64,000 bases of DNA. It comes from a virus. The stretch lies in IMG/VR virus record IMGVR_UViG_3300045988_089680, positions 11,055-75,054 of that record; one strand, given 5' to 3'. This document shows, piece after piece, positions 2,885 through 37,937 of this stretch. The notes under the pieces are model-generated. The model saw nothing but the letters and a program-made list of their open reading frames with translations, ran no database searches and was not told the origin of the DNA. The position numbers were made by a program, and so were the translations under genes. The stretch's first letter is position 1. Each line of letters opens with the position of its first letter.

Positions 2885-3232
2885 ATGGCAAAGGTAAGAA
2901 GAACAGAATTAAAAAAGATTGCCGCTGCTTACGAAAAGAAGGGCGGCAATATGGCTGCTACGGCAGTAGCTTTGGGCATTACACGCCAAGCCTTATATAA
3001 CTGGAGAAAAGAGGATGAGAAGTTAGCCAAGATGTTGGACGATATAGATGAAGGCATTCTTGACTTTACTGAAAGCAAGTTGGTTGAAAAGGTGAACGAA
3101 GGCAACCTAACTGCAATAATCTTCCTTCTGAAAACCAAGGGCAAGAAGCGTGGCTATGTCGAGCAAGTAGATAACAGATTAGTAGAAAATCCATTCGAGA
3201 AGTTAATGAAGGAGCTTCCCGATGATGATTAG
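2885..3232 (+). CDS. terS: terminase small subunit
   Basis: N-terminal HTH (ALGITRQALYNWRK) and FLLKTKGKKRGY, typical of small terminases. Lies just upstream of the large terminase. Start moved to the ATG at 2885. Confidence 0.6.
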   Translation: MAKVRRTELKKIAAAYEKKGGNMAATAVALGITRQALYNWRKEDEKLAKMLDDIDEGILDFTESKLVEKVNEGNLTAIIFLLKTKGKKRGYVEQVDNRLVENPFEKLMKELPDDD

Positions 3233-6482: not shown

Positions 6483-7157
6483 ATGGATATGATAAGTAAT
6501 TTGGTTGCAGAGGAAAAACCAGAATATAAGATAAAGGAAAGTGGAGATTTTTCATCACTTACATCAGTTGAATTATTAGCAATATTGTTTGGCAAGAGTT
6601 CGACATCAACTCTTCAAAAGGCAAGGGGTATTCTTAATCTAACAGATGGTAGTATAAGAGGTATCTCTAAACTTACTACGAAACAGATAAGAGAAGTAAC
6701 GAATTTCACAGAACAAAAGGCTAATGCTGTCCTTGCAGCATGCGAACTTGGACGAAGAGCGCAAATAGAAGAATCCAATAATATCAACCTCGGTAGTGCA
6801 TATGGCATATACAACTTCATGAAGCCACGAATAGGTAGATTAGACCATGAAGAAGTTTGGGTAATGCTAATGGATAACGCCTTTAATCTAAAGAAGGTAA
6901 AAAAGATAAGCAGCGGAGGACTTACAGAAACTGCATTTGATGTGCGTGTTATTTTAAAAGAAGCACTTCTCAATAATTCTACAGTGATAGCCGTTGCACA
7001 TAATCATCCAAGTGGTAATAAAAGACCAAGCAAAGATGATGATGGAGTAACACGGAAGCTACAACAAGCATGTGACACCATGAGAATAAAACTGATAGAC
7101 CATGTAATCGTAACAGATTTAGGTTATTATAGTTTCTCAGAAGAAGGTAAACTATAA
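6483..7157 (+). CDS. radC: RadC-like JAB/MPN domain protein
   Basis: VAHNHPSGNKRPSKDD is the JAMM/RadC signature. N-terminal HhH-like region. ATG embedded in TAAGAGCAATG. Confidence 0.8.
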   Translation: MDMISNLVAEEKPEYKIKESGDFSSLTSVELLAILFGKSSTSTLQKARGILNLTDGSIRGISKLTTKQIREVTNFTEQKANAVLAACELGRRAQIEESNNINLGSAYGIYNFMKPRIGRLDHEEVWVMLMDNAFNLKKVKKISSGGLTETAFDVRVILKEALLNNSTVIAVAHNHPSGNKRPSKDDDGVTRKLQQACDTMRIKLIDHVIVTDLGYYSFSEEGKL

Positions 7158-7190
7158 TTCTCTAGAACAGCAAATTTTCTTCAAAAAATG

Positions 7191-7221
7191 TTTGCTATTC
7201 AAATATTTTTAAGTATATTTG
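7191..7221 (+). promoter_or_regulatory. promoter upstream of the structural operon
   Basis: TTTG at 7191-7194 and TATATTTG at 7214-7221, 19-nt spacer. Confidence 0.55.
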
Positions 7222-7300
7222 CAAACAAAAGCGTGTGAAGATGCACGTGACAGAACCGTTCGTAATCATTGCTCAATTTATATCGGGTTCTAATAACGAT

Positions 7301-7340
7301 GGTCTGCCTGCATTAACGCTCGCAGACCATTTTTATTTAA
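7301..7340 (+). terminator. leader hairpin plus T-tract between promoter and scaffold gene (possible attenuator)
   Basis: GGTCTGC-N14-GCAGACC followed by ATTTTTATTT. Lies inside the GTG-started extension of track ORF 7235. Confidence 0.4.
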
Positions 7341-7351
7341 TCACAAAAGCA

Positions 7352-8071
7352 ATGAATAAGTATTTAAGAAAGGTTCTTGAAATGCTGAAAACCAACAAGG
7401 ACATTAAGGCATTGGGGTTCAGCCGTAGAGAGTTAAAGGGTATCGCTGCCAATGTTGCCGATAAACTGAAACTCGAAGAAGATGCTACTGACGAAGATGT
7501 TAGTGAAGCAATCAGTAATGCAATTGATGATGTCTTGCCATTACTGAAACTCACTCAATCGGCAGTAGACCGCCAAGTCCAAGATTACAAACGCTCTACA
7601 GATGACGACCCAGATGACGACCCAGATGACGACCCAGAGCCAAATCGTACTAGTCCATCAAAGAAGAATCCCAAGAGCAAAAAGGATAGCGATGATGCAG
7701 ATTCCGCTACCCTAGCTGCACTCAAAGAACTGAAGGAGGTAGTCACAGCTTTACAAGGTGAGGTTAGCACACTTAAAGCTGGTAATACAACTAACAGCAG
7801 ACGCACTAAAGTTGAGAAATTACTATCCGATACAGGTAAGTTCGGAGAAAGACAGCTGAAAGCCTTCTCTCGTATGAGTTTCAAGGATGAAGAGGAATTT
7901 GAAGAGTATCTCGAAGACCTAAAAGAGGACATTGAGGCAGAGAACCAAGAAAGAGCCGATCGTGGTCTTGGAAAGCTCGGAAATATTCCTGCTCCAGACA
8001 AGAATCAAAACAACAACAAGGAGGAAGAATTAATGTCAGATGAGGACGTCAAAAAGTTGGCTCAGATGTAA
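7352..8071 (+). CDS. head scaffolding protein (acidic, coiled-coil)
   Basis: Highly charged with a DDDPDDDPDDDPEP tract and helical E/K-rich C-terminus. Lies before the capsid gene. Start moved to the ATG at 7352, after the leader hairpin. The track gives 7235. Confidence 0.55.
   Translation: MNKYLRKVLEMLKTNKDIKALGFSRRELKGIAANVADKLKLEEDATDEDVSEAISNAIDDVLPLLKLTQSAVDRQVQDYKRSTDDDPDDDPDDDPEPNRTSPSKKNPKSKKDSDDADSATLAALKELKEVVTALQGEVSTLKAGNTTNSRRTKVEKLLSDTGKFGERQLKAFSRMSFKDEEEFEEYLEDLKEDIEAENQERADRGLGKLGNIPAPDKNQNNNKEEELMSDEDVKKLAQM
7601..7636 (+). repeat. 12-bp tandem repeat (GATGACGACCCA)x3 in the scaffold gene
   Basis: Direct reading. Encodes DDDP x3. Confidence 0.9.
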
Positions 8072-8102
8072 TCATCTATTGTTTAACTTTAAAAAAGCAA
8101 AC

Positions 8103-8516
8103 ATGTCAGTTTACGAAAATTACGAACCAGATCGAAAGAAGTTTGACTCGGGTATGGATGCAGTCGTAATCCGTCAGTATAACGGAGGAATCACTGGCGG
8201 CCGTGCCCTTGATTACACTGGCTTCATTGACGAGGTTATTAAGGCTGGCCACCTAGTAGTAAAAAAGGAAGTCGATGGTGTCTACGAATACAAGCCACTC
8301 GCAATCGAAGCAAGTACGGGTAAGTATCAAGCCATTCCTGCCGATGGTACACTGCCTGCAGGTGTTGTTGTGCGTTCTCGCCTAAAGGGTGAGGCTGTAG
8401 CAATCATGGACGATGGTCGTGTTAATGATGCTGCAATGCCTTATCAGTTTAAGGACGAAGACCAGAGAACTGCTTTCAAGACAGCTCTACCAAATCTTAT
8501 TTTCGAGCACGATTAA
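8103..8516 (+). CDS. hypothetical head protein (possible decoration protein by position)
   Basis: 137-aa ORF between scaffold and capsid genes, as in a lambda-like order. Start moved to the ATG at 8103. Confidence 0.4.
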   Translation: MSVYENYEPDRKKFDSGMDAVVIRQYNGGITGGRALDYTGFIDEVIKAGHLVVKKEVDGVYEYKPLAIEASTGKYQAIPADGTLPAGVVVRSRLKGEAVAIMDDGRVNDAAMPYQFKDEDQRTAFKTALPNLIFEHD

Positions 8517-8554
8517 ATAGTGCTCTAGTGTTAAATTAATAATTGCACAAAAGT

Positions 8555-9913
8555 ATGCATGAATCTCTTTTTATTCAGTTTATAAGGGCAATCTTTCCTA
8601 AGCTCAGTCTGTACGTAAAGGAGAAGGAGACCCCAAAAAACCGTACATATCTATTCAAGAAGATGTTGCGTGAGGTCTACTCTGCAGACCAGAAGTGGGA
8701 AGGAACATCAGCAAACACCACTTATGTTGCTGCTGACATTGTGGAGATGGATTCTCCTTTGCCATTGAAGAAACGTGGTTCTATAGCCACATCAAATGGC
8801 AAGCTACCGAAGATTGCCATGAAAAAAACTCTTTTGGAGTCAGACATCAACAATGTCAACATTATGAAAGCGCAGTATGAGAATTTGGTAACGAAAGCCA
8901 ATACCCTCCAAGCGCAAGGTCTTGTAGAGCAAGCAGCGGCAGCAAAACAAGCAGCAGACAATGCAAAAGCTCGTATCATCAACAAACTCATGAATGATGG
9001 CGTAGCTTGTTCTGTGGGTATCGAAGAACGTAACGAATTGAACTTTTTGGCAGGTCTCTCCAATGGTATCATAGCTGTTGAGGACGAGGACAATTCGGGA
9101 AAGGCAATACGTGTCAATTATGGTTATTTGCCAGCTAACAGCTTCCGTACAGCAACAAATGGAGTAACCACAAGAGACGACTTCGAGAAGATATTCGAGA
9201 AAGCAAATGCTGATGGCAACACCATCATAAAGGTATTGCTTGCAAAGAATCAGTTGAAGAAAATCCGTAAGGAACAGTGGGCGAAGGAACTCGTTGCTGA
9301 CTATGAAGGCAAGACATACACAGAGGAGTCCAAGTTGAAAACCCCATCAGAAAGCTCTTTCTCAGAAGCCTTTGAGGACGAGTTCGGTGCTTCAATTGAG
9401 ACAGTTAACCGAACGGTTGTCATTGAAAAGAATGGCAAACAGCATTCAGTAAAGCCTTGGAATGAGAACAATATTATCTTTATATGTAACGAAGAGGTAG
9501 GTTCACTTGTATGGGGTACACTCGCAGAATCCACAAACCCTGTAGAAGGTGTAAAGTACAGCACCGTAGATTCGTACAAGCTTATCTCTAAGTACTCAAA
9601 GAATGAGCCTTCTTTGCAGGAGGTAACATCAGGGCAGGCTCTCATACTTCCTGTTATCGAAGACGTAGACCAGATATATATGCTATCTACAAAGTCAGAA
9701 GAGGTAGATGAGGAAGCAGAGAAAACCGACACTTCCGACGAGTACACCACCTATAAAGGTAAAAAGTACAAGAAAACCGACCTTATCTCAGCTTTAAAAG
9801 CTGTAGGTGCAAATGTCAAGTCAAATTCTACGGACGAGACTTTGGTAAAGGCACTGAACGCACTTAGTGATGAAGACGAGGAGGCTCTTCTTTCACAGTT
9901 AACTGAACAGTAA
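8555..9913 (+). CDS. major capsid protein (by size and position)
   Basis: About 452 aa, directly after scaffold and decoration-like genes and before the connector genes. Acidic C-terminal tail. No search done. Confidence 0.55.
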   Translation: MHESLFIQFIRAIFPKLSLYVKEKETPKNRTYLFKKMLREVYSADQKWEGTSANTTYVAADIVEMDSPLPLKKRGSIATSNGKLPKIAMKKTLLESDINNVNIMKAQYENLVTKANTLQAQGLVEQAAAAKQAADNAKARIINKLMNDGVACSVGIEERNELNFLAGLSNGIIAVEDEDNSGKAIRVNYGYLPANSFRTATNGVTTRDDFEKIFEKANADGNTIIKVLLAKNQLKKIRKEQWAKELVADYEGKTYTEESKLKTPSESSFSEAFEDEFGASIETVNRTVVIEKNGKQHSVKPWNENNIIFICNEEVGSLVWGTLAESTNPVEGVKYSTVDSYKLISKYSKNEPSLQEVTSGQALILPVIEDVDQIYMLSTKSEEVDEEAEKTDTSDEYTTYKGKKYKKTDLISALKAVGANVKSNSTDETLVKALNALSDEDEEALLSQLTEQ

Positions 9914-9925
9914 ATTTGAATTACA

Positions 9926-10249
9926 ATGAAGACAATAAAGCAAGCATTGATTGATGAAATCCACTACCCTATCCCTTTAGGATTCGTGGAGAATAAGCTG
10001 ATTGAGCGTCAGCTTGATGGTGACGATGATTATACATTCGAGGTCGCCCAGTCCAAGGAATGGAAAGGTGCGCTTGCTGATTGTCTGTACTCTCTCATAC
10101 AAGCTGTAAGCTTATCCGAGTCAGACAAGAGCATTGGAACACTGTCTGACAAGGATAAGGAAAGGCTGTTAGTACGAATAAATGCTTTATACAGAACCAT
10201 CGGTGAATCCCCTGCACTGGGTCAACCGATGGTTTATATAGGAGGTTAA
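9926..10249 (+). CDS. head-tail connector/adaptor (by position)
   Basis: 107-aa ORF immediately after the capsid gene. Confidence 0.4.
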   Translation: MKTIKQALIDEIHYPIPLGFVENKLIERQLDGDDDYTFEVAQSKEWKGALADCLYSLIQAVSLSESDKSIGTLSDKDKERLLVRINALYRTIGESPALGQPMVYIGG

Positions 10250-10252
10250 GAT

Positions 10253-10585
10253 ATGGCTGTATTGGATTTCGCTGCTCATACCCTAGATTACCTACACGTA
10301 ACTGACGGGTATGAAGACAATAACGGAGACTATGTTCAAGGCTCAGAAGAATGGGTGGAGAACTATTGTAAATGTGATATTGTTCCTGCTGGCAAGGCAA
10401 ACGTTATCACTATCCCCGATGGTTCTGCTAAGAACTATTCCTACACCATCTACAACCTTCCTAGAGCATGCCGCGATTTCGAGTATGGAGACAAAATCCG
10501 TGTAAAGCTCTTCGGAAACGAAGTGAAGGAATTTGTCGTACTCGGCTTTCATCGTTATCAACTGCAATGTAAAATATGGGTATAA
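10253..10585 (+). CDS. head closure / neck protein (by position)
   Basis: 110 aa. GGAGG lies 7 nt upstream of the ATG. Confidence 0.4.
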   Translation: MAVLDFAAHTLDYLHVTDGYEDNNGDYVQGSEEWVENYCKCDIVPAGKANVITIPDGSAKNYSYTIYNLPRACRDFEYGDKIRVKLFGNEVKEFVVLGFHRYQLQCKIWV

Positions 10586-11058
10586 AACTCTCAACCTCTC
10601 AGTCTGCGCTCAATAACTTTTTTCAGTCCGCTATGGCGATAATAAAGCAAGAAATCCTCACTGCTTATGCCAAGTTAGGAGAAGAATGTAATGCAAGGAT
10701 AAGAGACCGCTCGGCAGAGGAAAGTTGGATAGACCATACAGGAAACCTACGAAGCTCCATCGGTTACGCCATCTTTGACTACGGAAGGAAACAAATAGAA
10801 TCAGCCTTTGCTTCCATAGGAAATGGTTCTAATGGTTCACAAGAAGGAAGACAAATGATAGCTGACCTAGCAAAGGAATACTCACAGGTTTACGCATTGG
10901 TAGTAGTCGCGGCTATGAACTATGCAGACTTTGTAGAAGCTAAAGAAAATAAAGATGTGCTTGCATCCACTGAGTTATGGGCTCGTTCTGTCGTTGATGG
11001 TAAACTAAAGCTCGCTGTGGATAAAGCTGTAAGTAGAATCAATCAGATAAGGCTATGA
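10576..11058 (+). CDS. HK97 gp10-like tail completion/neck protein
   Basis: WIDHTGNLRSSIGY resembles the HK97 gp10 family DTGxLRxSI motif. Overlaps both neighbours. Confidence 0.5.
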   Translation: MGIKLSTSQSALNNFFQSAMAIIKQEILTAYAKLGEECNARIRDRSAEESWIDHTGNLRSSIGYAIFDYGRKQIESAFASIGNGSNGSQEGRQMIADLAKEYSQVYALVVVAAMNYADFVEAKENKDVLASTELWARSVVDGKLKLAVDKAVSRINQIRL

Positions 11059-11474
11059 AATCGGATATTGACATCAAGGATGATGTGTACAACATTATCT
11101 CTTCTTCGAAATTAAAGACTGCAGTAACAGGTAGTCTTTGTAAGCGAGGAAGACCATACAATGGCACAGGTAAGACTGGCAAGGAAGATATTTGTATCTC
11201 CATCTTAGCTAACAGAACTTCGCAGATACAAGAAGCTTTCGTGAATGTAAACATCTACGTTCAAGACCAGACCACCACCAAGAAAGGCAATATCCAAAAG
11301 GAAGAGAACACGGCAAGGCTTCGTGAGTTATGTCAACTCTCTTTCTCTATCTTCGAAGCGGTTCATGGATCAGATTTCCGCTTATCCATGAACGAACAAA
11401 GGGTAATAGCTTGCGAGGGCACAAGTGAGCACATCATTAATAACAAATTATTGTACCAAACCATAAACGATTAA
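11055..11474 (+). CDS. tail terminator-like protein (by position)
   Basis: 139 aa. ATGA overlap with the upstream gene. Precedes the tube gene. Confidence 0.4.
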   Translation: MKSDIDIKDDVYNIISSSKLKTAVTGSLCKRGRPYNGTGKTGKEDICISILANRTSQIQEAFVNVNIYVQDQTTTKKGNIQKEENTARLRELCQLSFSIFEAVHGSDFRLSMNEQRVIACEGTSEHIINNKLLYQTIND

Positions 11475-11478
11475 GATT

Positions 11479-12081
11479 ATGTCAGTAATTACATGGGGAA
11501 AGCCATCCATCTATGTTCGTGACCTTAGTGCTTCAACCAACAACTGGAAGAAGCTTGATACTCCAAAGGAGGACACTACTCAGTTGAACCCTACCAAGGG
11601 TGATACAACAGAAGCTAAGGAGGAAGGTGGCGGTATTGTCGATTCCAAGACAGCTAAGTCTACCTACGAACTCGTTTATCAAGAGTTCATCAAGAAGGGC
11701 TTATCTCAGCCTTTCCCTACCATTGATGGACTTATCGAAGGAAACTACGCTATCGCTGTTCAGCCGGAAGATGCAGAGAACCCTGGTTGCTATATCGGAA
11801 AGTCAACAGTAAGCGTGGAGGAGTCATATTCTTCAGCGGATGGTGCTTTGATGCAGTACACCCACAAGGCTCTTGTGCCAGAGGGTGACGAAGTAGCAAA
11901 GACCACCAACAATAAGGGTGAGACCGTATATTGCCAGTTCCGTTGGCGCATCATCACAGCCAAGAAGGCTAAGGGAAAGACAGACGAATACGTTCTCACA
12001 TTCAAGCATCCTGCAGGTGCTACAGACACATCAACGGAAATAACCGTTCCAACAAACGGACAAATCGAAGGTGACGTTTAA
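11479..12081 (+). CDS. major tail (tube) protein
   Basis: 200 aa. Canonical position upstream of the chaperone and tape measure genes. Confidence 0.5.
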   Translation: MSVITWGKPSIYVRDLSASTNNWKKLDTPKEDTTQLNPTKGDTTEAKEEGGGIVDSKTAKSTYELVYQEFIKKGLSQPFPTIDGLIEGNYAIAVQPEDAENPGCYIGKSTVSVEESYSSADGALMQYTHKALVPEGDEVAKTTNNKGETVYCQFRWRIITAKKAKGKTDEYVLTFKHPAGATDTSTEITVPTNGQIEGDV

Positions 12082-12140
12082 GGCAATATGTTGATTTCTT
12101 CTCTCCCTTCTGCCGATTGAGGGTTATCAGTCGGCAATCT

Positions 12141-12250
12141 ACCCAAGTAGCTCAGTTGGTTAGATTGCGAGACCAAATCCTGTCCTGTAAAATCCAGTTG
12201 GTCTTTAAAAAGATGGTTGAGAGACGCAGGTTCGAGTCCTGCCTTGGGTG
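12141..12250 (+). tRNA. atypical tRNA-like element (acceptor stem, D-loop and T-arm present; no canonical anticodon arm)
   Basis: ACCCAAG pairs with CTTGGGT. D region is TAGCTCAGTTGGTTAGA. T-arm is GCAGG-TTCGAGT-CCTGC. The centre is an 8-bp hairpin (GAGACCAA/TTGGTCTT) with a 21-nt loop. 110 nt in total. Confidence 0.5.
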
Positions 12251-12270
12251 CTAACAAATTTTATTGGCTT

Positions 12271-12993
12271 ATGAAGAATGACATCGAAATTGGCACAAAG
12301 ATAGCCATGGTGTTAACAGATACACCTATAGGCATACAGGTAGGTAGAAGACACATGTTTATCTACCCTCAGACTTTAGGCAAAATGTATTTGACTGCTC
12401 CATTGATTAAGCAGATGGGAATCAAAGATGATAACCTAAAACTGAATCCACTCATAGAAGCACTCCGTGTAGTAAGTGAGAACCGAAGTATCTGCTGTAA
12501 GCTAATAGCCTATCATACCCTTCAGAAGAAATCCGATATGCTAAGTTCACGCATACTGAAGGCAAGGGAAAACATCATCTTCAAGTTCTGTGATAACGAT
12601 GATATAGCTACCCTTCTCATCACCATACTCTCAGACAACAAACTTCATGACATTATCACAGAATGTGGTATAGACAAGCAAGCACAACGCATGGAGAAAA
12701 TAAACAGAGCCAAAGACTCCAGTAATCAGTATATATTTGGTGGAAGAACCATTTGGGGCTCTCTCATTGATGCAGCTTGCGAGAGATACAAGTGGACCCT
12801 TGACTATGTTCTGTGGGAAATATCATATAACAACCTCACACTCATGATGAAGGACAAGATAACTTCCGTCTATCTATCTGACGAGGAGAGAAAGAAGGCT
12901 CACATTCCATCGGCAACAGAGAAGGTCTTTAGCGGAGATAACAAAGAGGACATCATGGAGCTGATCAGACAGAGCGAAGAGAATCCAATTTAA
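12271..12993 (+). CDS. tail assembly chaperone (by position)
   Basis: ORF between tube and tape measure genes. Track start 12217 lies inside the tRNA-like element, so the ATG at 12271 is preferred. Confidence 0.45.
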   Translation: MKNDIEIGTKIAMVLTDTPIGIQVGRRHMFIYPQTLGKMYLTAPLIKQMGIKDDNLKLNPLIEALRVVSENRSICCKLIAYHTLQKKSDMLSSRILKARENIIFKFCDNDDIATLLITILSDNKLHDIITECGIDKQAQRMEKINRAKDSSNQYIFGGRTIWGSLIDAACERYKWTLDYVLWEISYNNLTLMMKDKITSVYLSDEERKKAHIPSATEKVFSGDNKEDIMELIRQSEENPI

Positions 12994-13074
12994 CCTCCAA
13001 CACTAACAAGAAAAAAGTAAAGAATAAAGGTTTGAAATAGGAGGTGCACCTTTACGTAATTGACAGAATAAAAA

Positions 13075-16000
13075 ATGCCAGGTTTAAAGTTTGACATAAC
13101 AGGAGATAATTCAGCTGTACTGAGAGCCTTTAAGGGTGTGCAAGATGGTGTGGCACAGACAGCAAGAGTAGTCGAGCAGCAGGGTCAGAGCATTGAGAAT
13201 GTTTTCAATCGCATCAAGTCTGTTGCATCGGTAGCTGTTGCTGGCTTTACGGCAAAGGAAATCATCAGCACACTGGGTACTGTCCGAGGAGAGTTTCAGC
13301 AGTTTGAGATTGCCTTTGAAACCATGCTCGGTAGCGGGCAGAAGGCAAAGGGAATGATTTCGGACCTCGCCAACCTTGCTGCTTCTACACCTTTTGACAT
13401 GAAGGGTGTGGTAGATGGAGCAAAGCAGCTCCTTGCATACGGATTTGCAGCCAACGAGATTACCGATACCATGAGAAGACTCGGTGATGTATCTGCAGGA
13501 TTGGGATTGAACCTTCAAGACCTCACATGGCTCTATGGTACCACGATGGTGCAAGGTCGATTGTTCACAAGAGACTTGATGCAATTTACAGGTCGCGGTA
13601 TTCCTTTGACAGAGGAACTTGCCAAGCAGTTCGGAGTTACCAAGGATAAGGTTTCGGAATTGGTGACCGCAGGTAAGGTTGGTTTCCCCGAAGTCAAGAA
13701 GGCTATCGAAAGCCTTACCAATGAGGGTGGTAAGTTCGGTGGATTGATGGAAAAGCAATCTCACTCTATTACTGGTCAGGTAAGCAATATTAAAGATACT
13801 ATCGAAATGGCTATCAATGACCTTGGCACTCAGACAGAAGGCTTGATGAATGATGCTTTGGACATCACATCTACGGTTATTGACCATTGGAAGGAGATAG
13901 GTGAGGTTATCCTTGCAGCCGCATCTGCCATCGGTCTTTATAAGGCAATGGCGGTAAGTGTAGCAGCCTTTGATACAGCTACAGCAAATGTAGGCTATGC
14001 GGCTGAGTTGTCAGCCCTTGACGCATTACTTCCAAAGAAGGAAGAAGTAAAGAAGACAGACCTTGAAGAAGCAGTAGCCAAAGGTCAGTTATCAGCAGCA
14101 CAGGCGGAATTGGTAGCATCCAAGCGTGAAGAGGTTGCAGCTTACGTTGCCGAATTGCAAACCAAGGCAAAGGTTATGCAAGACGAGGTTCACGTATTGG
14201 AGAATAAGCTTGCGCTACAAGATAACGAAGTACAATCACTCCAAGATGCTTATGATGCCCTTGACGATTATGTATCAGCAGAAGTCAGAGATACGGCAGC
14301 AACAAACCTCAATACGGCAGCAAACGAAAGAAACAATATAGCAAACCAACTTAAAGCAGCAAGAGAGAAAGCTGCAACGGCTGCAACCAATGCCAATACA
14401 GCATCCCAAGGATTGAATACCGCAGCGACAGCTCGCGATACAGCAACCAAAGGAATATGGGCACAGGTTACTCTCTTATGCGAGAAAGCACAGAGGGCAT
14501 GGAATGCTTCTATGTTCTCTAGTCCATTATTTTTGATAGCAGCTGCCATAGTAGCTACTACATATGCTGTGTATAAGCTTGCTACTGCAGAATCGGCTCA
14601 CGAAGCAGCCGTAAGAAAATCCAATGAAGCATGGGATGAGTTCGATAACAAGGTTAAAGAACGTCAGCAGAATATAGAAAGCCTTATCAGAACCATACAA
14701 TCTGAAACGGCAACGGAATTCGAGAAAGCAGAAGCCTACCAAAAGCTCTCTAATCTCGCTCCTCAACTTACAGATCAGTATGACCAAGCTGCCATAGCTT
14801 CTCTTGACTTTTCTAAGGCCCAAAAGGAAGTGGCAGAAAGCATGGATGAGTCAAAATACGACAAAGCCGTAGAAGATGTAAAAAAATACAAAGATGAAGT
14901 AAGCAAACTCCAGCAATTATTATCAAGTGATGCAAAGTACAACGGAGGAGGTCAAGGAATACTACTCAGTCGTCAATTAGAGACAGCAGAAGCAGCATTA
15001 GATCGTGCAGAGGACAGACTCAATAATATCATTTCCCTACGTAATCAAGCTGCCGAAAACGCAAAGCCTATAGAGGTTCGCTTGCAAGAAGCGCAGGAGA
15101 ACGAGAGTGTTCGTCAAGAAATCTTTGACTTCTACGATGAAGCTATGACGCTAGCTAACGACTGGCAATCAGCCAACGAAACCATCAACTACGCCACTGG
15201 CGAGAGTAGATTGGACGCATTCATCAATAAAGCTCAGATGGAAATAGCAGATCTTCGTGAAGACATTAAGAAGAATCCAGCTGATCTGAATCTCCGCATG
15301 CAGGAGTCTGAGAAAACAAAGGTTCTGGACAACCTCTTAGCGATGAAGCGTAATTGGGCGGTTACTGGCGCAACAACCATTCCTTTGATTTTTAGGGCTC
15401 AATGGAACACCGCCAAACAATCCCTCAATCAAGCCAAAACAAAGGCACAAGCGTTGGTTAATGCGGGTTCTACGGAAACCTACCAGCAATCTTACAACAA
15501 GGCGCAGCGAAAATACTACGCAGCCCAAAAGAAGGTTGCTGCTATGGAGAAAAATAAGAGCAAATACACCACTGCTCAGTACGAAACCGCCATCCAAGAC
15601 TTGAAAGCAGCCAAGGATGCCTACTCTAAGCTAGGTGGTGATGTAAGTGGGAATGCAGCGAAGGCAGCAGCAACGGCACGTAAGACTCGCATCAAGGAGG
15701 TAAACCAAGCTATCAAGGTCCGGGAGGAGTTGAACAACCGCTTGAAGGCTTTGCAGCAGAAAAATACTGACGAGACTATCTCCCTTATGCAGGAAGGCAC
15801 GGAGAAGAAGCTTGCTCAAATCAAGAATGACTATGCCAAGCGCAAAGCCGAGATTGACAAGCAGGAAGCCGAGTTCAAGAAGAAGAACAAGGAAGCTGGC
15901 AAGAAAGAAGCCCTTACTTCTGCTCAGTCTAATGCTCTCAGTAAGGCAAGAGACCTCGCTACCCAAGAATACAACAAGAAGCTTGATGAGGTCAACAGGG

Positions 16001-18186
16001 AAGCCCTCACCTCTATGCGCGACTACTTGAAGGAGTATGGTTCTCTCTATCAGCAGAAACAAGCCATTGCCGAGGAATATGAAGAGAAGATTGCCAAGGC
16101 TCAGACGGAAGGCGAAAAGCTCTCCCTTCAGCAACAGAGGAAAAAGGACCTCCAAGCCATCGAGTTAAACACTATCAGACAGAACATTGACTGGGGAAGC
16201 ATCTTCGGAGACTTCGGTGCTATGTTCAAGGATCAACTGGAGCCAACCATCAAGAAGCTGCAGGAGCTCTCCAAGAGCACAACAGATGTCAACGAACAGA
16301 AGACCATACAGGAGCTTATATCCAAGCTACAAGGCTCTGCCACCGTCTGGGATAGCGATATTTTCAAGAAGGTCTCTGACGACATCAACACCTATCAGTC
16401 AGCCATGCAAGGCTATATTGATGCCCAGGAACGAGAAATAAAAGCAGCAGAAGCAGTCACCAAGGCTCAAGAAGACCTCGCAAAGGCAAAGAAGGGTGGA
16501 GACCAAACAAAGATAGACAAGTCAGAGGTAAATCTTGCATTAGCACAAAAGAATCTTACTACAGCATCGAACGATGTTAAAACGTTCGGTTCTACAGTAC
16601 AGAAGGCAACCTCAGACTTACAGACATCTGCTCAGAAGGCAGCCTCTCAGTTCCAACAGCTTGAAGATGGCTTGCAGGGTCTTACCTCTGGCTCACTCAA
16701 AGGCATAGGAAACTCCATTCTTGGCCTTGACAAGCTTTTTGGTGGTAGTATGCAGAAGGATACAGCCAATACCATTGCTAAGGGTATTCAAGATTTGCTC
16801 GGCAAGGACAGCAATGCTGCAAAGGTTCTGACGCAAGCTTTAGGGGATAGCGGTTTGGCAGGAGAGATAATATCAGCAATACTTGGAATCCTCGATATTC
16901 TCAAAGATGGCTTTGGAACACTCATAAGCAACCTCATGGACACGGTCTTTGGCACAGTAACTGGCATCCTAGATGATGCTTTATCGGGTGACATCGTTAT
17001 GAAGCCTTTGAAGAGCATAGGAGACAATGTCTCTCATATCCTCAACACGCTATCATTCGGTGGTTTCAATAGTCTGTTCGGTGGAGACGGTAATGCCAAG
17101 AAGGTAAATGACACCATCGAAAGACTCACAGACCGAAATGAACTCCTGCAACAATCCATCGAGGATTTAACTGACGCAATGGAAAACTCCTATGGCTCCA
17201 AGGCAACCTCATACTACGAGCAAGCCTATAAGAATCAGCAGGAGACCAATCAAAACTACCTCGACATTGCAAAGGCGCAAGCAAGCTATCACGGTTCTCA
17301 CCATTCATGGAACGCTTATTGGAGTGGCTTCAGTAGTGAAGAGATGGAGTGGATCAAGAAGAACGTCAAGTCTGACTTCAATGGCGACCTCTTCTCCCTC
17401 AGTCCAGAAGAGATGAAACTTCTCCGTGGAAACGTCGCCATTTGGGAACACATAGAGAATACTGGTAAGGGTAATTATGGCGGTCGTTTGACAGATAAGC
17501 TGAATGACTATATAGACCAAGCTGGTAAGTTAGAGGAGCTGTCAGATAAGATGAAGGAGAATCTTACTCAGATTACCTTTGACAGTATGAAGGAAAGCTT
17601 TATCTCTGACCTCATGGATATGAATAAGTCAGCACAAGACTTCGCAGACGATTTCGCAGAAATGATGCAGAAGGCTCTTCTCTCCTACTCCATGGAAGAC
17701 CTCATCAATGGTGACTTGAAGAAGCTATATGATGATTGGGCAGCTCTCATGAAGGCTAAAAACGGTCAGCTTACCGACGCAGACATAGAAGATTTCAACA
17801 AACGATATGAAGACATCGTTTCGGAGGGAATTAAGCGCAGGGATGAATGGTCTAAGGTAACAGGCTTCACTGGAACATCATCCCAGTCTGCTACAAGCGG
17901 AGGATGGCAGTCAATGGGACAAGAAACGGCTGATGAACTAAACGGTCGTTTCACAGCTCTACAGATTGCAGGAGAGAACATTTCCGCTAACATGGTAACC
18001 ACCGTAGCACAGATGGAAACAATAGTGGCAACTGGAATATCAACAAATGGGGCGGTCGTAGAAATCCGTAACATGATGATAATGACCAACAGCTACCTTG
18101 AAGACATCGTTAAATACGCTAAGCTCACATACAACGAGTTCGGTACTAAGATAGATGATATGAATAAACGATTAAAGGAAATTTGA
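13075..18186 (+). CDS. tail tape measure protein
   Basis: 1703 aa. A/Q/K/E-rich coiled coil with an internal hydrophobic segment (SSPLFLIAAAIVATTYAVYKLA). Canonical position. Confidence 0.85.
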   Translation: MPGLKFDITGDNSAVLRAFKGVQDGVAQTARVVEQQGQSIENVFNRIKSVASVAVAGFTAKEIISTLGTVRGEFQQFEIAFETMLGSGQKAKGMISDLANLAASTPFDMKGVVDGAKQLLAYGFAANEITDTMRRLGDVSAGLGLNLQDLTWLYGTTMVQGRLFTRDLMQFTGRGIPLTEELAKQFGVTKDKVSELVTAGKVGFPEVKKAIESLTNEGGKFGGLMEKQSHSITGQVSNIKDTIEMAINDLGTQTEGLMNDALDITSTVIDHWKEIGEVILAAASAIGLYKAMAVSVAAFDTATANVGYAAELSALDALLPKKEEVKKTDLEEAVAKGQLSAAQAELVASKREEVAAYVAELQTKAKVMQDEVHVLENKLALQDNEVQSLQDAYDALDDYVSAEVRDTAATNLNTAANERNNIANQLKAAREKAATAATNANTASQGLNTAATARDTATKGIWAQVTLLCEKAQRAWNASMFSSPLFLIAAAIVATTYAVYKLATAESAHEAAVRKSNEAWDEFDNKVKERQQNIESLIRTIQSETATEFEKAEAYQKLSNLAPQLTDQYDQAAIASLDFSKAQKEVAESMDESKYDKAVEDVKKYKDEVSKLQQLLSSDAKYNGGGQGILLSRQLETAEAALDRAEDRLNNIISLRNQAAENAKPIEVRLQEAQENESVRQEIFDFYDEAMTLANDWQSANETINYATGESRLDAFINKAQMEIADLREDIKKNPADLNLRMQESEKTKVLDNLLAMKRNWAVTGATTIPLIFRAQWNTAKQSLNQAKTKAQALVNAGSTETYQQSYNKAQRKYYAAQKKVAAMEKNKSKYTTAQYETAIQDLKAAKDAYSKLGGDVSGNAAKAAATARKTRIKEVNQAIKVREELNNRLKALQQKNTDETISLMQEGTEKKLAQIKNDYAKRKAEIDKQEAEFKKKNKEAGKKEALTSAQSNALSKARDLATQEYNKKLDEVNREALTSMRDYLKEYGSLYQQKQAIAEEYEEKIAKAQTEGEKLSLQQQRKKDLQAIELNTIRQNIDWGSIFGDFGAMFKDQLEPTIKKLQELSKSTTDVNEQKTIQELISKLQGSATVWDSDIFKKVSDDINTYQSAMQGYIDAQEREIKAAEAVTKAQEDLAKAKKGGDQTKIDKSEVNLALAQKNLTTASNDVKTFGSTVQKATSDLQTSAQKAASQFQQLEDGLQGLTSGSLKGIGNSILGLDKLFGGSMQKDTANTIAKGIQDLLGKDSNAAKVLTQALGDSGLAGEIISAILGILDILKDGFGTLISNLMDTVFGTVTGILDDALSGDIVMKPLKSIGDNVSHILNTLSFGGFNSLFGGDGNAKKVNDTIERLTDRNELLQQSIEDLTDAMENSYGSKATSYYEQAYKNQQETNQNYLDIAKAQASYHGSHHSWNAYWSGFSSEEMEWIKKNVKSDFNGDLFSLSPEEMKLLRGNVAIWEHIENTGKGNYGGRLTDKLNDYIDQAGKLEELSDKMKENLTQITFDSMKESFISDLMDMNKSAQDFADDFAEMMQKALLSYSMEDLINGDLKKLYDDWAALMKAKNGQLTDADIEDFNKRYEDIVSEGIKRRDEWSKVTGFTGTSSQSATSGGWQSMGQETADELNGRFTALQIAGENISANMVTTVAQMETIVATGISTNGAVVEIRNMMIMTNSYLEDIVKYAKLTYNEFGTKIDDMNKRLKEI

Positions 18187-18288
18187 CCTACAACGGTTTT
18201 TCGCTGCCCAACCCTTATTACTATACTCACAAATAGGAAAAGAGGTTCACAGCGAAAACCAAGTGGGTCTAAGCTAAAATAATAAGAT

Positions 18289-18750
18289 ATGCCTAAAGGA
18301 CAACTCATAATAAACGGTAAGGATGCGTTCAGAGAGTATGGAATCTTCATGGATGATACCGCACTCAGCACACTTATGACACCTGCTCCTAACAAGGAGT
18401 TTATAAGTAACAAGTATCGCTCCAAGAATGGAAAGCGTGTTATCAAGCATAACCCATGCTTGGATGAGCGAGAGATAACGGTAGGATTCCATTTGTCAGC
18501 CAAAGACGTTGATTCCTTCTTGTCGAAATATGAGAAGTTCTGCAACGAAGTCCTTGCTACTGGAGAAATGGTTATCCATTCTTCCTTTCAGCCTAAAGTA
18601 TGGTATAGATGCATTTACATATCATGTTCGCAGTTTAGTCAGTTCATGAGGGAAATGGCATCATTCAGCCTAAAGCTCAATGAACCAGACCCAAGTGACA
18701 GAGGAGAAAAAAGCAAATACGTAACAGATGATACAGATATACAGAAATAA
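18289..18750 (+). CDS. distal tail protein-like
   Basis: 153 aa, directly after the tape measure gene. Confidence 0.45.
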   Translation: MPKGQLIINGKDAFREYGIFMDDTALSTLMTPAPNKEFISNKYRSKNGKRVIKHNPCLDEREITVGFHLSAKDVDSFLSKYEKFCNEVLATGEMVIHSSFQPKVWYRCIYISCSQFSQFMREMASFSLKLNEPDPSDRGEKSKYVTDDTDIQK

Positions 18751-21577
18751 TCAGCCGTTCTTCGCTCTCGAAGATGTTTGTGATGGTTCTAAGATGTCAC
18801 GGCAGCTTATGGACCATCACTACATCGTCTTGAAGTTTTCTACAGAAGAGCCAGTCTATTTTGAGATTGGTGACTCTGTGGAGATAGCTGATTTCGGTCT
18901 TTTCGTCCTTACATCTGCATACTTCCCGAAGTATAACGAAACCACTGACGGTTACGACTATGAGCTGCAGATGGATGCCTATTACATGAGCTGGAAGAAC
19001 AAGATATGTAAGTATCGTCCTCAGTATGGTGCTAACGAGACATCATTCAAGCTCACAACATCTGTTTCTGTACACTTAAACGTTGTTCTAAGCAACTTAA
19101 AGGCCTTAAACTATAAATACCACAACAAGGATTTCTCAGTCGATTACACGACATATAATAAGGAAGTGTTCGACACGGAAAAGAGATTCCTTGTAGAGTA
19201 TAGTTCAATAAGCATAATAGAAGCTCTCAATACGATATGTGAGACTCTTGATTGTGAGTGGTGGGTGGATGGTTCTATCATATACCTTGGTTACTGTGAA
19301 ATGAATGGACAGATAACCTTTGAACAAGGGGTTAATATGCTGTCTATGTCACAATCAGAATCAAAATCATCTTTCATCACTCGACTGTACGCTTTCGGAT
19401 CAGACAAGAACATACCTTCGGGATATTTCTCAGGAGCTGACGCAGATGTGACTACAGACGGTATAGCTACTGATTACCTCATGCTTCCAAACAAGGACGT
19501 TGACGAAGAAGGCTATTACAGTAAAGATGGGTATATCGAGAATGTAAATGTGGTCAAGAGTGATTCACAAGCCATCGAAGGAGTAGTAAAGTTTGAAGAT
19601 GAATACCCTAAAGTGAGTTGTGTTGTAAGTGCCATAAAAACGTATGAAAGTACGGTAGATAATGAAGATGGAACTAAAAATACAGCTACATTCTGGCAAG
19701 TAACATCAAATGACTCTTTTGCAACGAATTTCGAAACGAGTTGGATAAAGAAGGGACTCAACCTTATGATTAGGTTTGAGAGCGGTGCGCTAACAGGGAT
19801 GGAATTTGAGGTAAGCTTCAAGATAATAGACAATGTTAACTATTTCGAGATTGTTGCCAACGATACATACGGTCGCACACTACCAGATTCTGTAATGTGT
19901 CCGAAGATAAGTGATAAGTTCCATCTCTACAACTGGGACGCAAGTAAGATAACAGATACACCTCTAATCTCAGATGCGCAAGAAGCCTTGTATGCCAGAG
20001 CGAAGAACTACTACAAGAAATCAATGGTGGATAACTCCAACTTCACCTGTGTTCTTGATAGTGAGAAGTTCTTCAACAACGGAACATACAACTATCACCC
20101 TCTTGGCGAGCAAGTGAAGCTCATCAATCCGTTGTTTTCGGAGACAGATAAGGATGGTAAGCATTATCGTAACTCTCGTATCATAGGTATCGAAATCAAA
20201 TTGGACATACCTTATGACAGTCCAACCTACATAGTGGGCGAGAAAGCAGCCTATAGTCGTCTTGGTCAACTTGAAGACAAGGTTAACTCTATAACAGTCA
20301 ATGGACAACAAATCGGAGGTGCATCAGGTGGTGGAGGAGTCTATATTATCGGAATGAATGACACTACACCAGAGACCGATAGTAATGTCTACTCTGCACG
20401 ACGTACACGTAATAGTTTCCTTTCCAAGGTTCGAGCGGACACGGCAATGGGTCTTATCAACTTCGCTAAAGGCCTTGTCTCAAAGGAGACTGCAAGCCTA
20501 CATGAAGGCGCACAGTTCGGAGAATCCTTTGCCGATGGTCAAGCAGGTTTCGGTGGAAAGATAGACGGTCGAGGTGTGGGCTATCTTGAATCCCTCACAC
20601 TGCGTTCATTTATGGAAGCTCCTGAGTATCGCTTCAACCGCATATCAATACGAGTTGGTAACGACTGGAGAGCGGCAGGAGGTGGTATTATAGAGAGTGT
20701 AGAGATAGACCATGATGAGGGAGGAAACGAGCTGCAGAGAGGCACAGTATACTTGCATCTTGAAGAAGGTGAGATTGGAAAGATAGCAGTTGACGACATC
20801 TGTCAAGGAATATGGCACGACCACATTACGCTGGCCAACAATTCCACAGGCGACTACGACGATGGTATAGGCAACTTCCGCTTCGGTGGCTTCTTCACCG
20901 CCTACTTCCGTATAGTAGAGGTTATGAGCGTGAATGGAGGTATCAACAACGCATTCCGTTACGTCCTCAGAAGTGACAAACACTGGAAAGCCTTACATCA
21001 CCCTGCAAGCATGATGCACTTCGTTGCTTACGGTAACTTCTCGGATAAGACAAGACAAAGCTCTCGCTACTCTACCCTTACCTACGAGCGTTATCTGAAG
21101 GACGTGAACGACTGGGAGTTTACAGAGAACATGATAGCCGCACAATTTGGAGACCTGTCTAATCTTAGCATTTTCGGTCTCAACATGAAGGGCTATTCTG
21201 CTTACCTCAACAACATCTACATGTCGGGAACAATTCAGCAGTTTGTAAAGCTCGGCAGGAAGATGCACATCGACCAAAGCCTCGGTGGTTACATGGCACC
21301 AGGCGAGGTTGAAACAGTTACGGTGAGCGTCCTTGACGGTTATATGCAAGACCACACAGAAGAATATACATTCATGGTGGAGCGAAACACAGGCGACACG
21401 GCAGCTGATGATGTTTGGAACGCGATGCCGGAACATATAAACTGCGGTTCTACGTTTGAAATCTCGTTTGAGGACTTGCACATCAACCCAAATCACGGAG
21501 GTATAAGCACCTTATTTTATGTGACAGCCGACAACGGCAAAGAAGGAGAGAGGGTGTCTACAGCAATAGAATATTAA
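18728..21577 (+). CDS. tail tip / baseplate hub protein
   Basis: 949 aa. Overlaps the preceding gene by 23 nt. Contains a GGASGGGG linker. Confidence 0.5.
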   Translation: MIQIYRNNQPFFALEDVCDGSKMSRQLMDHHYIVLKFSTEEPVYFEIGDSVEIADFGLFVLTSAYFPKYNETTDGYDYELQMDAYYMSWKNKICKYRPQYGANETSFKLTTSVSVHLNVVLSNLKALNYKYHNKDFSVDYTTYNKEVFDTEKRFLVEYSSISIIEALNTICETLDCEWWVDGSIIYLGYCEMNGQITFEQGVNMLSMSQSESKSSFITRLYAFGSDKNIPSGYFSGADADVTTDGIATDYLMLPNKDVDEEGYYSKDGYIENVNVVKSDSQAIEGVVKFEDEYPKVSCVVSAIKTYESTVDNEDGTKNTATFWQVTSNDSFATNFETSWIKKGLNLMIRFESGALTGMEFEVSFKIIDNVNYFEIVANDTYGRTLPDSVMCPKISDKFHLYNWDASKITDTPLISDAQEALYARAKNYYKKSMVDNSNFTCVLDSEKFFNNGTYNYHPLGEQVKLINPLFSETDKDGKHYRNSRIIGIEIKLDIPYDSPTYIVGEKAAYSRLGQLEDKVNSITVNGQQIGGASGGGGVYIIGMNDTTPETDSNVYSARRTRNSFLSKVRADTAMGLINFAKGLVSKETASLHEGAQFGESFADGQAGFGGKIDGRGVGYLESLTLRSFMEAPEYRFNRISIRVGNDWRAAGGGIIESVEIDHDEGGNELQRGTVYLHLEEGEIGKIAVDDICQGIWHDHITLANNSTGDYDDGIGNFRFGGFFTAYFRIVEVMSVNGGINNAFRYVLRSDKHWKALHHPASMMHFVAYGNFSDKTRQSSRYSTLTYERYLKDVNDWEFTENMIAAQFGDLSNLSIFGLNMKGYSAYLNNIYMSGTIQQFVKLGRKMHIDQSLGGYMAPGEVETVTVSVLDGYMQDHTEEYTFMVERNTGDTAADDVWNAMPEHINCGSTFEISFEDLHINPNHGGISTLFYVTADNGKEGERVSTAIEY

Positions 21578-36683: not shown

Positions 36684-37937
36684 CTATTTATCCTCGTTTA
36701 TATCAAGTATATAATCTATTACCTTACGATTTGCATCGTCTATTTTTTTTCGATTAAAATTGATATACACTTGTGTAACAGCAGCTCCTGTCGAATAAGA
36801 ATGTCCAAGAGCACGACTTATAACATCTTCTGGTATATCAAGTTCGCTTGCCAATGTAGCCCATGTATGCCTTGCCCAGTATGATGATAGACGAGGGAAC
36901 AAAGGTGTGTACTCCTTGATGAATTTATGGCGATGCGTTTTTGAAAATTTCGGGTTTTGAATTATAACGCATTTCCCTACTCTTTTAAGCTGATAGTCAA
37001 AACTACCTATAAAAGATTGTGTAGTCTTATATCTTTCTAAGATGTCTAGTAAGTACTCGTTGCCTTTGTATCGATTTATTATCTCAAGTGCTTCTGGTTC
37101 TACTTTTATAGAATACAACTTTTTGGTCTTCCGGCGTCTGTAGTTAATTCTACCTTGACTATCTATTTCTCTCAATTCGCACAAATCAGCAATGTTAATG
37201 CCAATTAGATATATACATAACTTAAATAAGTCTATAGTTCGCTGTAGATGAGGATCGGCTACTGCAAACAATGACCTAACCTCATCTAAAGTTAAAGAGC
37301 GTTTTACTGTCTGTTCCGTTTTAATCTTAAACACACGAAAAGGATAATTCTGAGTAATCTCGTTATCTAAAGCATCATTGAAAACAGCTCTAATACTACG
37401 AAAATGCATGTTACGTCCATTTATAGTAGGAGAATACCTCCGTAGGAAAATGTCAAATCCGGTAAGCCAGTCTTTTGTTATGTTTTCAAATGTTTTTGAC
37501 TTAATATGATTGTCATACTCTAACATCTTCTTTGCTGTTAATAAATATATCTTTTTTGTTCGCATTGCAGAACGAGAGTTCGCAAAAGAAAGAAAACGAT
37601 TATAGAAACTGTTAGACGCAGCAACAGCAGGATCCAGCATTTCTTGCACTTTATTTTTTATTTGTGTTGCTGTCAGTTTTGTTAATTTTCCATCCTTGGT
37701 TAAATCCATGATTATATTAGACACTTTATTGCGTAGAGTGTCTATATAACTTTGAAGAGCTTTCTTATTAGGATGGTCTTTAATACGTTCTTTTTCTGCA
37801 TCCCATTGAGTGGGATATATTCTCACATTCAAAGATATATAAGCAGAAGACCCCTTCTTATTTATGCCGATTTTAAGAGGAGCTTCTTCACCACGCTTTA
37901 CTGAACGCTTATCTAAATATAAATGTACTGTTGCCAT
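36684..37937 (-). CDS. int: tyrosine recombinase (phage integrase) with N-terminal arm-binding-type domain
   Basis: ARHTWATLA, LGHS and TQVY fit the R..HxxR..Y catalytic pattern. The N-terminus (VHLYLDKRSVKRGEEAPLKIGI) is typical of Bacteroidota integrases. Confidence 0.85.
   Translation of the reverse strand: MATVHLYLDKRSVKRGEEAPLKIGINKKGSSAYISLNVRIYPTQWDAEKERIKDHPNKKALQSYIDTLRNKVSNIIMDLTKDGKLTKLTATQIKNKVQEMLDPAVAASNSFYNRFLSFANSRSAMRTKKIYLLTAKKMLEYDNHIKSKTFENITKDWLTGFDIFLRRYSPTINGRNMHFRSIRAVFNDALDNEITQNYPFRVFKIKTEQTVKRSLTLDEVRSLFAVADPHLQRTIDLFKLCIYLIGINIADLCELREIDSQGRINYRRRKTKKLYSIKVEPEALEIINRYKGNEYLLDILERYKTTQSFIGSFDYQLKRVGKCVIIQNPKFSKTHRHKFIKEYTPLFPRLSSYWARHTWATLASELDIPEDVISRALGHSYSTGAAVTQVYINFNRKKIDDANRKVIDYILDINEDK

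Follow-up and report, generated by a model that had tools for sequence, protein, structure and literature searches.

A predicted non-decoding, tRNA-shaped RNA with a central pseudoknot in the late structural operon of Segatella copri siphophages

Why should a phage carry, between two of its structural genes, a sequence that has most of the arms of a tRNA and apparently nothing with which to read a codon? The question is raised by nucleotides 12141-12250 of a 64,000-nt stretch (positions 11,055 to 75,054) of the IMG/VR virus record IMGVR_UViG_3300045988_089680, which we call the window and whose numbering is used throughout. An earlier note on this DNA had described there a tRNA-like element without an anticodon arm, lying between the tail tube and chaperone genes, and had listed several possible roles for it. 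Our analysis indicates that the element is a conserved, non-decoding, tRNA-shaped RNA in the late structural operon of temperate siphophages of Segatella copri, in which a covarying pseudoknot appears to replace the anticodon stem-loop. As to its role, we give about an even chance to a processing signal comparable to t-elements or tRNA punctuation, at which RNase P and RNase Z would cut; the cleavages and the effect on expression are what we infer.

The tRNA core and its central domain

The likeness of the element to tRNA is confirmed. It is also beyond chance, since the sequence matches the Rfam tRNA family RF00005 from end to end (model positions 1-71 of 71) with a score of 36.3 bits, above the gathering score of 29 bits. 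The E-value is 5.8e-4 when the whole 64-kb window is searched and 1.8e-6 for a 194-nt slice, in which tRNA is the sole meaningful family match. The acceptor stem, D region, T arm and discriminator base could all be read where the earlier note had placed them: the acceptor stem has seven base pairs, the T arm a GTTCRA loop and the D arm the residues G18 and G19, and all the bases that usually make tertiary contacts in a tRNA are kept. With an acceptor stem, D arm, 5-nt variable loop and T arm like those of a normal tRNA, an L-shaped elbow should form. The minimum free energy structure given by RNAfold for the window copy is a non-tRNA fold (z = −1.70), which is uninformative because pseudoknots and tertiary structure are beyond the program.

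What departs from a tRNA is the centre. In the window copy the Rfam alignment skips a 52-nt insertion where the anticodon arm would sit. A default ARAGORN search of the whole window for tRNA and tmRNA returned no gene, and our own scan of the window copy for a 5-bp stem with a 7-nt loop found no such arm, which agrees with the earlier note. The default program likewise called no tRNA in any of 20 diverse versions of the element, and among the relatives there is no 5-bp/7-nt arm at a conserved position with U33 and a purine at 37, nor an anticodon conserved between orthologues. The heptamers CTGTAAA and CTTTAAA were considered as anticodon loops and rejected: neither is flanked by a stem in the window, as had already been remarked, and the same holds in every relative.

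Relatives were gathered by protein-anchored and pattern searches. These gave 149 fetched loci, some contigs being present twice, with 32 distinct versions of the element, including that of a Segatella copri prophage; individual loci are cited below by L numbers. In all 140 loci with enough flanking sequence, the element is preceded at less than 200 nt by the end of a homologue of the tube protein gene, and a homologue of the chaperone-position gene starts less than 120 nt downstream in all 136 loci where this could be seen. In divergent members the identity of the flanking proteins falls to 59-74% (tube) and 49-64% (chaperone-position), and despite this divergence the columns of the acceptor stem, D arm, variable loop and T arm are nearly invariant. 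Because this core hardly changes and its base pairs covary, the element is under strong constraint and not decaying. To identify the ancestral isoacceptor, tRNAs of normal size with this acceptor stem were sought as well, but the hits were only unrelated tRNAs of Arg or other type, without synteny.

For the central domain the earlier note had proposed an 8-bp hairpin. Its inner five base pairs (12170-12174 with 12200-12204), here called S1, are conserved and covary, whereas the remaining pairs are not conserved. A second central helix, S2, had been missed; it joins CCAG at 12194-12197 to ATGG at 12213-12216. The strands follow each other in the order S1a-L1-S2a-L2-S1b-L3-S2b, with S2 crossing S1, which is the arrangement of an H-type pseudoknot. 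S1 closes a loop of 23-36 nt, and the 3′ end of this loop (AAAUCC-A-N) pairs with N′-UGG in an extended variable region, the whole domain in the place of the anticodon arm measuring 49-57 nt among the versions. In the relatives S1 is found as AGGTC/GACCT, AGGCC/GGCCT, TGCCC/GGGCA or TGGTC/GACCA, and S2 as CCAG/CTGG, CCAT/ATGG, CCAC/GTGG, CCTT/AAGG or CCGC/GCGG. The window copy has a G12197•A12213 mismatch in S2, while its relatives are fully paired and covary at this helix.

A plain MAFFT alignment leaves the central helices out of register, the loops being of variable length. In the structure-aware alignments used here (A3 and A4) the sequences were cut at independent anchors and the variable loops padded with N. 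Among 20 diverse sequences, the whole structure (tRNA arms, S1 and S2) has 99.2% of its cells paired, compared with 92.5 ± 0.6% in shuffled alignments, and nine base pairs show changes on both sides, compared with 3.7 ± 1.0; none of 500 shuffles reached either value. When the 3′ partners were slid by one to three columns as a control, 24-48% of the cells paired, and an alignment of 22 sequences gave figures similar to those of the 20-sequence set. S1 and S2 have 97.5-99% of their cells paired. Compensatory changes are present in three of the five base pairs of S1, two of the four of S2 and two each in the acceptor and T stems, the counts of compensatory cells partly reflecting shared ancestry because the sequence diversity amounts to about a dozen clearly separate lineages. 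In the acceptor stem A1-U72 is replaced by G1-C72 and C4-G69 by A4-U69, and the T stem occurs as GTAGG/CCTAC and ACAGG/CCTGT. The predicted fold, tRNA core plus pseudoknot, is compact with good covariation support.

Two other pairings did no better than shuffled sequences. The alternative pairing of GGTCTT with a second GAGAC, which the earlier note had raised, was followed as GTCTTT with A(G/A)AGAC; 84.8% of its cells are paired, no more than the average of the shuffles, L188 and L029 break it, and it was rejected. A 4-bp A/U helix of the variable-arm kind, between the first four nucleotides of L3 and TTGA, is paired in 90% of the cells compared with 91% in shuffles, with no compensatory change.

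The earlier reading of the D stem needs a correction, which concerns the window copy only. Two T residues are inserted at 12165-12166 in the 3′ strand of this stem (GATTGC), whereas the other 31 distinct versions read GAGC; the element of the nearest relative, L002, is identical to the window copy apart from the insertion. This insertion accounts for the lower Rfam score of the window copy (36 compared with ~47 bits, the relatives scoring 44-47 bits). It would be either a recent mutation that makes the D stem bulge, or an assembly or sequencing error.

The tube-to-chaperone gap, the operon and the host

Four nucleotides before the element the DNA encodes a hairpin without a T-run (Table 1). 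It is kept in 28 of the 32 distinct versions, where it ends 3-5 nt before position +1, and RNAfold gives it about −15 kcal/mol. The base at position −1 is a U in most versions; bacterial RNase P favours a U there. On the other side of the element, the ATG of the next gene lies 1-26 nt past the discriminator, and in L200 (nine contigs) and L204 a single base separates the two. A translation start so close to an acceptor stem looks implausible unless the tRNA-shaped RNA is cut, removed or unfolded.

In more distant relatives the same gap is differently occupied. L182, L183 and L184, whose tube proteins are 43-46% identical, have an intrinsic terminator there, composed of a GC-rich hairpin and a T-run. 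L186 (tube 57% identical) has a different tRNA-like element of ~76 nt at about 3058-3134, without a pseudoknot and with a 6-nt loop, which ARAGORN finds at a relaxed threshold only. L189 (at 2111-2186) and L190 (tube 66% identical) have a tRNA-like element of ~77 nt with A33 and a 6:67 mismatch, again without a pseudoknot. Default ARAGORN calls that of L189 a tRNA-Leu(taa), in spite of A33, of the mismatch (T•T) and of a length that is that of a class-I tRNA. The acceptor stems of the L186 and L189 elements are related (ACCCATG...), and it is doubtful that either is a real tRNA. From these comparisons the tube-to-chaperone gap is predicted always to hold something able to make an RNA end, and what its tRNA-like elements have in common is the acceptor/T-arm shape, not the pseudoknot.

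The element lies inside a run of plus-strand genes that spans 13-36273. The names tube and chaperone are given by gene order and synteny, the PHROG families of the two proteins being unnamed. A consensus terminator scan of 7000-19000 found no plus-strand terminator-like site before 18759, and promoter-like matches in the same region were no commoner than in shuffles. From the gene order, and from the lack of a plus-strand terminator match between them, we infer that the tube gene, the element and the chaperone gene form one transcription unit. A sigma-70 match within the element (9/12, at 12165-12193) was not used: it is weak, the regional count is below the shuffle expectation, and the host belongs to the Bacteroidota, with another promoter type.

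The phage is temperate, as shown by a Bacteroidota-type tyrosine integrase at 36684-37937, which adjoins a gene with a type I restriction HSDR_N domain (38270-39265, minus strand). The 3′ half of the element, used as a query against reference genomes, matched two loci only, both with the tube-element-chaperone synteny, one on a 1.6-Mb chromosome contig of Segatella copri N016-9 (NZ_JAPDUQ010000001.1, prophage L198) and the other in a metagenome-assembled genome. The prophage copy in the N016-9 chromosome points to Segatella (Prevotella) copri or a close relative as the host. This copy also encodes CCA directly past the discriminator (4154-4156 of L198), which the other copies inspected do not. 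Toward the start of the gene run, the plus-strand genes at 13-1314, 2010-2873 and 6483-7157 encode a protein in which a phage 'DAM-like domain 2' is fused to a phage GNAT-like domain, an ATP-grasp enzyme, and a JAB protein of the RadC-like type; the first two hint at a system for the covalent modification of nucleic acids or of something else.

Table 1. Coordinates of the predicted parts of the element and of its neighbours (window numbering unless a locus is named)
Feature	Position	Strand	Remarks
Whole tRNA-shaped RNA	12141..12250	+	110 nt; 98-115 nt in relatives; RF00005
Acceptor stem, 5′ strand ACCCAAG	12141..12147	+	pairs with 12243-12249, 7/7 pairs
D region TAGCTCAGTTGGTTAGA	12148..12164	+	read from sequence
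D arm GCTC / AGTTGGTTA / GA[TT]GC	12150..12168	+	A14, G15, G18 and G19 all present
S1, 5′ strand AGACC	12170..12174	+	anticodon-stem equivalent; pairs with GGTCT 12200-12204
L1 variable loop segment	12175..12193	+	14-29 nt in relatives; ends in conserved A-rich AAAU
S2, 5′ strand CCAG	12194..12197	+	pseudoknot helix; pairs with 12213-12216
S1, 3′ strand GGTCT	12200..12204	+	covariation
L3 A-rich linker TTAAAAAG	12205..12212	+	4-9 nt in relatives
S2, 3′ strand ATGG	12213..12216	+	covariation
Linker TTGA and 5-nt variable loop GAGAC ending in C48	12217..12225	+	Rfam alignment to tRNA variable loop; columns nearly invariant
T arm GCAGG-TTCGAGT-CCTGC	12226..12242	+	sequence and Rfam
Acceptor stem, 3′ strand CTTGGGT, and discriminator G12250	12243..12250	+	CCA not encoded
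Upstream hairpin TGCCGATTG / CAGTCGGCA	12111..12136	+	12111-12119 with 12128-12136; 8-nt loop, no T-run, 4 nt before element
Major head protein gene	8543-9913	+	followed by four small genes before the tail-tube-position gene
Tail-tube/major tail protein gene, by position	11479..12081	+	open reading frame, 200 aa; PHROG 17745, no named function
Chaperone-position gene	12271..12993	+	open reading frame, 240 aa; PHROG 11996, unnamed; ATG 20 nt past discriminator
Tape measure protein gene	13075..18186	+	1703 aa; PHROG 9959, E = 1.9e-212
Tyrosine integrase gene, Bacteroidota-type	36684-37937	−	domains Arm-DNA-bind_5, Phage_int_SAM_5, Phage_integrase
Gap terminator, L182	2951-3018		GC-rich hairpin and T-run
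Gap terminators, L183 and L184	3200-3293		GC-rich hairpin and T-run

Processing signal, trans-acting RNA or tRNA

A processing signal in this position would act in a few steps. The element would be transcribed within the long late mRNA, and the host RNase P would cut its 5′ end at 12140/12141. The mRNA reaching from the capsid to the tube gene would then end in the upstream hairpin and would thereby be shielded from 3′ exonucleases. A second cut, past the discriminator G12250, would be made by RNase Z or another activity that processes 3′ ends, and the mRNA for the chaperone and tape measure would come free with a leader that is very short. In this way the abundant tube protein would be uncoupled from the low-copy chaperone and tape measure, a job that the intrinsic terminator would do at the same site in the more distant relatives. 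The pseudoknot would keep the excised RNA compact and unable to engage a ribosome, and it may also add a second, trans-acting role. An uncoupling of this kind had been among the suggestions of the earlier note, and of these it best fits the context, because the upstream hairpin is conserved, the start codon follows within 1-26 nt and terminators stand at the same site in distant relatives; the cleavage itself is the conjectural part. The marks of a t-element are also present, namely a tRNA-like fold with a conserved T arm and a non-canonical cloverleaf, placed between the reading frames of what would be one transcription unit.

Several points weigh against this reading. The mechanism is deduced from the anatomy of the element and from its genomic context, both of them read from sequence. 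Recognition by RNase P and RNase Z needs the acceptor and T arms only, and processing alone therefore leaves the conservation of the pseudoknot and of the AAAUCC and GGUUGARAG motifs unexplained. The upstream hairpin is absent in versions L192 and L203. The window copy, whose D stem bulges by 2 nt and whose S2 has a mismatch, may be slightly impaired, unless the bulge is an assembly error. Finally, while the S2 strands were placed by anchors independent of pairing, the 3′ strand of S1 was set, within a range of 0-3 nt, where it gave the best complementarity, and this favours S1.

The conservation that processing leaves unexplained is what a trans-acting mimic of tRNA would account for, a reading that we consider unlikely on balance though it survives best among the alternatives. 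The operon and the tRNA-processing enzymes would then serve only to make a stable RNA of ~110 nt, a natural 'tRNA scaffold', and the function would reside in the pseudoknotted centre. The RNA could act as a decoy or sponge for a host factor that binds tRNA, such as a defence nuclease directed at the anticodon or acceptor, a synthetase or a modification enzyme, or as a non-ribosomal carrier of an aminoacyl group. The more ambitious claim, that the excised RNA is a dedicated trans-acting mimic and stands for a new class of phage non-coding RNA, we regard as somewhat more doubtful again; the elbow of acceptor, T and D arms may in that case recruit host tRNA enzymes or be bound by a tRNA-targeting factor, with the pseudoknot barring entry into translation. 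In favour of a mimic, recognition by RNase P and RNase Z would require far less conservation and covariation than the pseudoknot and the motifs beside it show, the bases for the tertiary interactions of real tRNAs are all retained, and the acceptor end (A1-U72, G73) resembles the bacterial tRNA-Trp acceptor identity set. However, related phages have at the same site either tRNA-like elements without a pseudoknot (L186, L189) or a terminator only (L182-L184), which argues that a position-specific role in cis is the common denominator. No partner protein was identified beside the element, and an antisense action through L1 is improbable, as this longest of the single-stranded parts differs among versions in length as well as in sequence. 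The processing reading and a mimic are compatible, and both could hold together.

The earlier note had also thought of an intron-containing or degenerate tRNA. A genuine decoding tRNA, specific for Trp or acting as a suppressor, would need either a short intron or insertion that some unknown activity removes, or an expanded loop, and we consider it very improbable. The ARAGORN search with introns allowed, which the earlier note had proposed as a check, does return a tRNA-Trp(cca) for the window copy, with a 16-nt 'intron' in the anticodon loop and a 21-nt variable arm. The Trp call is repeated in 12 of the 20 diverse orthologues, the acceptor end is Trp-like in the sense given above, and the RF00005 score passes its threshold. 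The remaining orthologues are however called Val (two) or Ala, Leu, Ser, Lys and Stop (one each), and the supposed introns range from 9 to 27 nt in length and lie anywhere between positions 31 and 38. Moreover, the CCA taken for an anticodon is a strand of S2; with its partner it becomes CCUU/AAGG in L195 and CCGC/GCGG in L200, and its distance from the 3′ strand of S1 ranges between 1 and 4 nt among versions. Because the CCA strand covaries and the calls are inconsistent, we reject the reading of the element as a tRNA-Trp with an intron, and the lack of a conserved anticodon arm with U33 and R37 speaks against any decoding tRNA. Introns of tRNA genes sit at a fixed site, usually 37/38, with a bulge-helix-bulge, or are group I introns of at least ~200 nt; the insertion is far below the latter size, its place is not fixed, Rfam has no intron family at the element, and part of the supposed intron or loop pairs with the variable region. 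A suppressor seems unneeded, since translation of the window in the standard code looks normal, with open reading frames as long as the 1703-aa tape measure and no sign of stop-codon reassignment. In substance, neither an ordinary cloverleaf with a defined anticodon nor a want of conservation, the two outcomes that the earlier note would have held against its element, was found.

Least probable of all, and contradicted by the covariation and conservation, is a functionless relic, whether a decaying tRNA pseudogene or the remnant of an attachment site (attP) with part of a host tRNA gene. In its favour, the phage is temperate, tyrosine integrases of such phages often target tRNA genes and the window copy has its D-stem insertion and S2 mismatch. 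Against it, the integrase lies 24 kb away rather than beside the element, both tRNA halves are there and hardly vary although the flanking proteins diverge to 49-74% identity, nine base pairs have compensatory changes, and the genome-collection scan with the 3′ half met only the two loci of the same phage synteny and no host tRNA gene.

Other oversized tRNA-like genes and known systems

An IMG/VR pattern with intact D and T arms 52-80 nt apart matched at least 119 loci (L064-L181), members of the present family among them. At least 50 of them are other tRNA-like genes, with centres enlarged by ~20-60 nt, which are heterogeneous, stand in other contexts and do not share the architecture described here; L077, L082 and L113 are adjacent-tRNA artefacts among the matches listed. 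Some of the oversized genes are found in tRNA arrays, and L108 and L117 resemble a tRNA-Ile(UAU) interrupted by an insertion directly past position 37. Others are solitary, among them a 'TGCAGAA' family (L075, L078, L080, L095, L120, L122) and a 'GGGGAAG...AAAGAAAA' family (L068, L088, L136, L142). Altogether, phages seem often to carry tRNA scaffolds into which a domain has been inserted. Downstream of the oversized gene of L064 (3491-3618 of the oriented locus), at a distance of 316 nt, stands a gene of 507 aa with the domains DUF2828 and DUF7788. DUF2828 proteins are presumably related to RNA-binding proteins of the TROVE/Ro60 type, and if this kinship holds the L064 RNA could be Y-RNA-like. 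In addition, on several gut-phage contigs (L212-L223) a lone tRNA gene comes with a sigma-70-like promoter and a terminator of its own, and ARAGORN assigns to these genes the odd anticodons ACT and AAC, a loop CTACTAA being alternatively read around CUA; these are possibly suppressor or unusual tRNAs, unrelated to the element.

Segatella copri is among the most abundant and most studied human gut bacteria, and the phages described here come from many gut samples. If the processing model is true, tRNA punctuation, a means of fixing mRNA ends and protein ratios that is best known from mitochondria, would extend to a bacteriophage operon. The element would then do the work of a terminator where the major tail gene gives way to the genes of the low-copy chaperone and tape measure, and the model would have implications for translation initiation on near-leaderless mRNAs of the Bacteroidota. 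A mimic, if that is the true reading, would represent a new class of phage non-coding RNA aimed at the host tRNA machinery, and a natural version of the laboratory 'tRNA scaffold' inside a structural operon. For the annotation of viromes the fold is one that gene finders miss or mislabel, as ARAGORN finds none by default and in intron mode gives inconsistent anticodons among relatives.

Full-text literature searches yielded analogues and no earlier description of the element, and Rfam 15 has no family for it but tRNA. Canonical tRNAs, including those encoded by phages, resemble it in acceptor stem, D arm, variable loop, T arm, tertiary bases and score. They differ in the centre, where the element has a pseudoknotted domain of 49-57 nt in place of the 7-nt loop and conserved anticodon. 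Partial copies of tRNA are known from the 3′ tRNA-like structures of plant viruses of the turnip yellow mosaic virus type, the tRNA-like domain of tmRNA, the YrlA modules of bacterial Y RNAs, the mascRNA of MALAT1 and the tRNA-miRNA chimeras of gammaherpesviruses. Such mimics recruit tRNA enzymes (RNase P and RNase Z, the CCA-adding enzyme, synthetases) without decoding, and several have pseudoknots. In the plant-virus structures, unlike the phage element, the pseudoknot builds the acceptor stem and an anticodon arm is kept. A tmRNA has a tag reading frame, and at the element there is neither an ARAGORN tmRNA call in the window nor an Rfam tmRNA match. The ends of YrlA form a stem that binds Ro60 and its gene lies beside rsr, whereas the phage element has a normal acceptor stem, tube and chaperone-position neighbours, and no match to a Y RNA family of Rfam.

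The closest functional analogue would be the t-elements of plant mitochondria. These are tRNA-like sequences in polycistronic transcripts, with a non-canonical cloverleaf and a conserved T arm, and cleavage by RNase P and RNase Z turns their ends into the 3′ and 5′ termini of mRNAs; the leader left on the downstream mRNA can be very short, and after excision the t-element itself may survive as a stable RNA (PMC1920247). The phage element shares with them the non-canonical cloverleaf, the conserved T arm and the place between genes. It differs in belonging to a DNA phage of bacteria, in its complete D arm and elbow, its covarying pseudoknot and its dedicated upstream hairpin, and in that its cleavage is a prediction from sequence. 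As regards the presumed outcome, a reduced expression downstream of the tube gene, the element may be compared with an intrinsic terminator or attenuator past the major tail gene, which would occupy the same position. In contrast to a terminator, the hairpin before the element has no T-run and is followed by a tRNA-shaped RNA, and any 3′ end formed there would arise by cleavage, not by termination.

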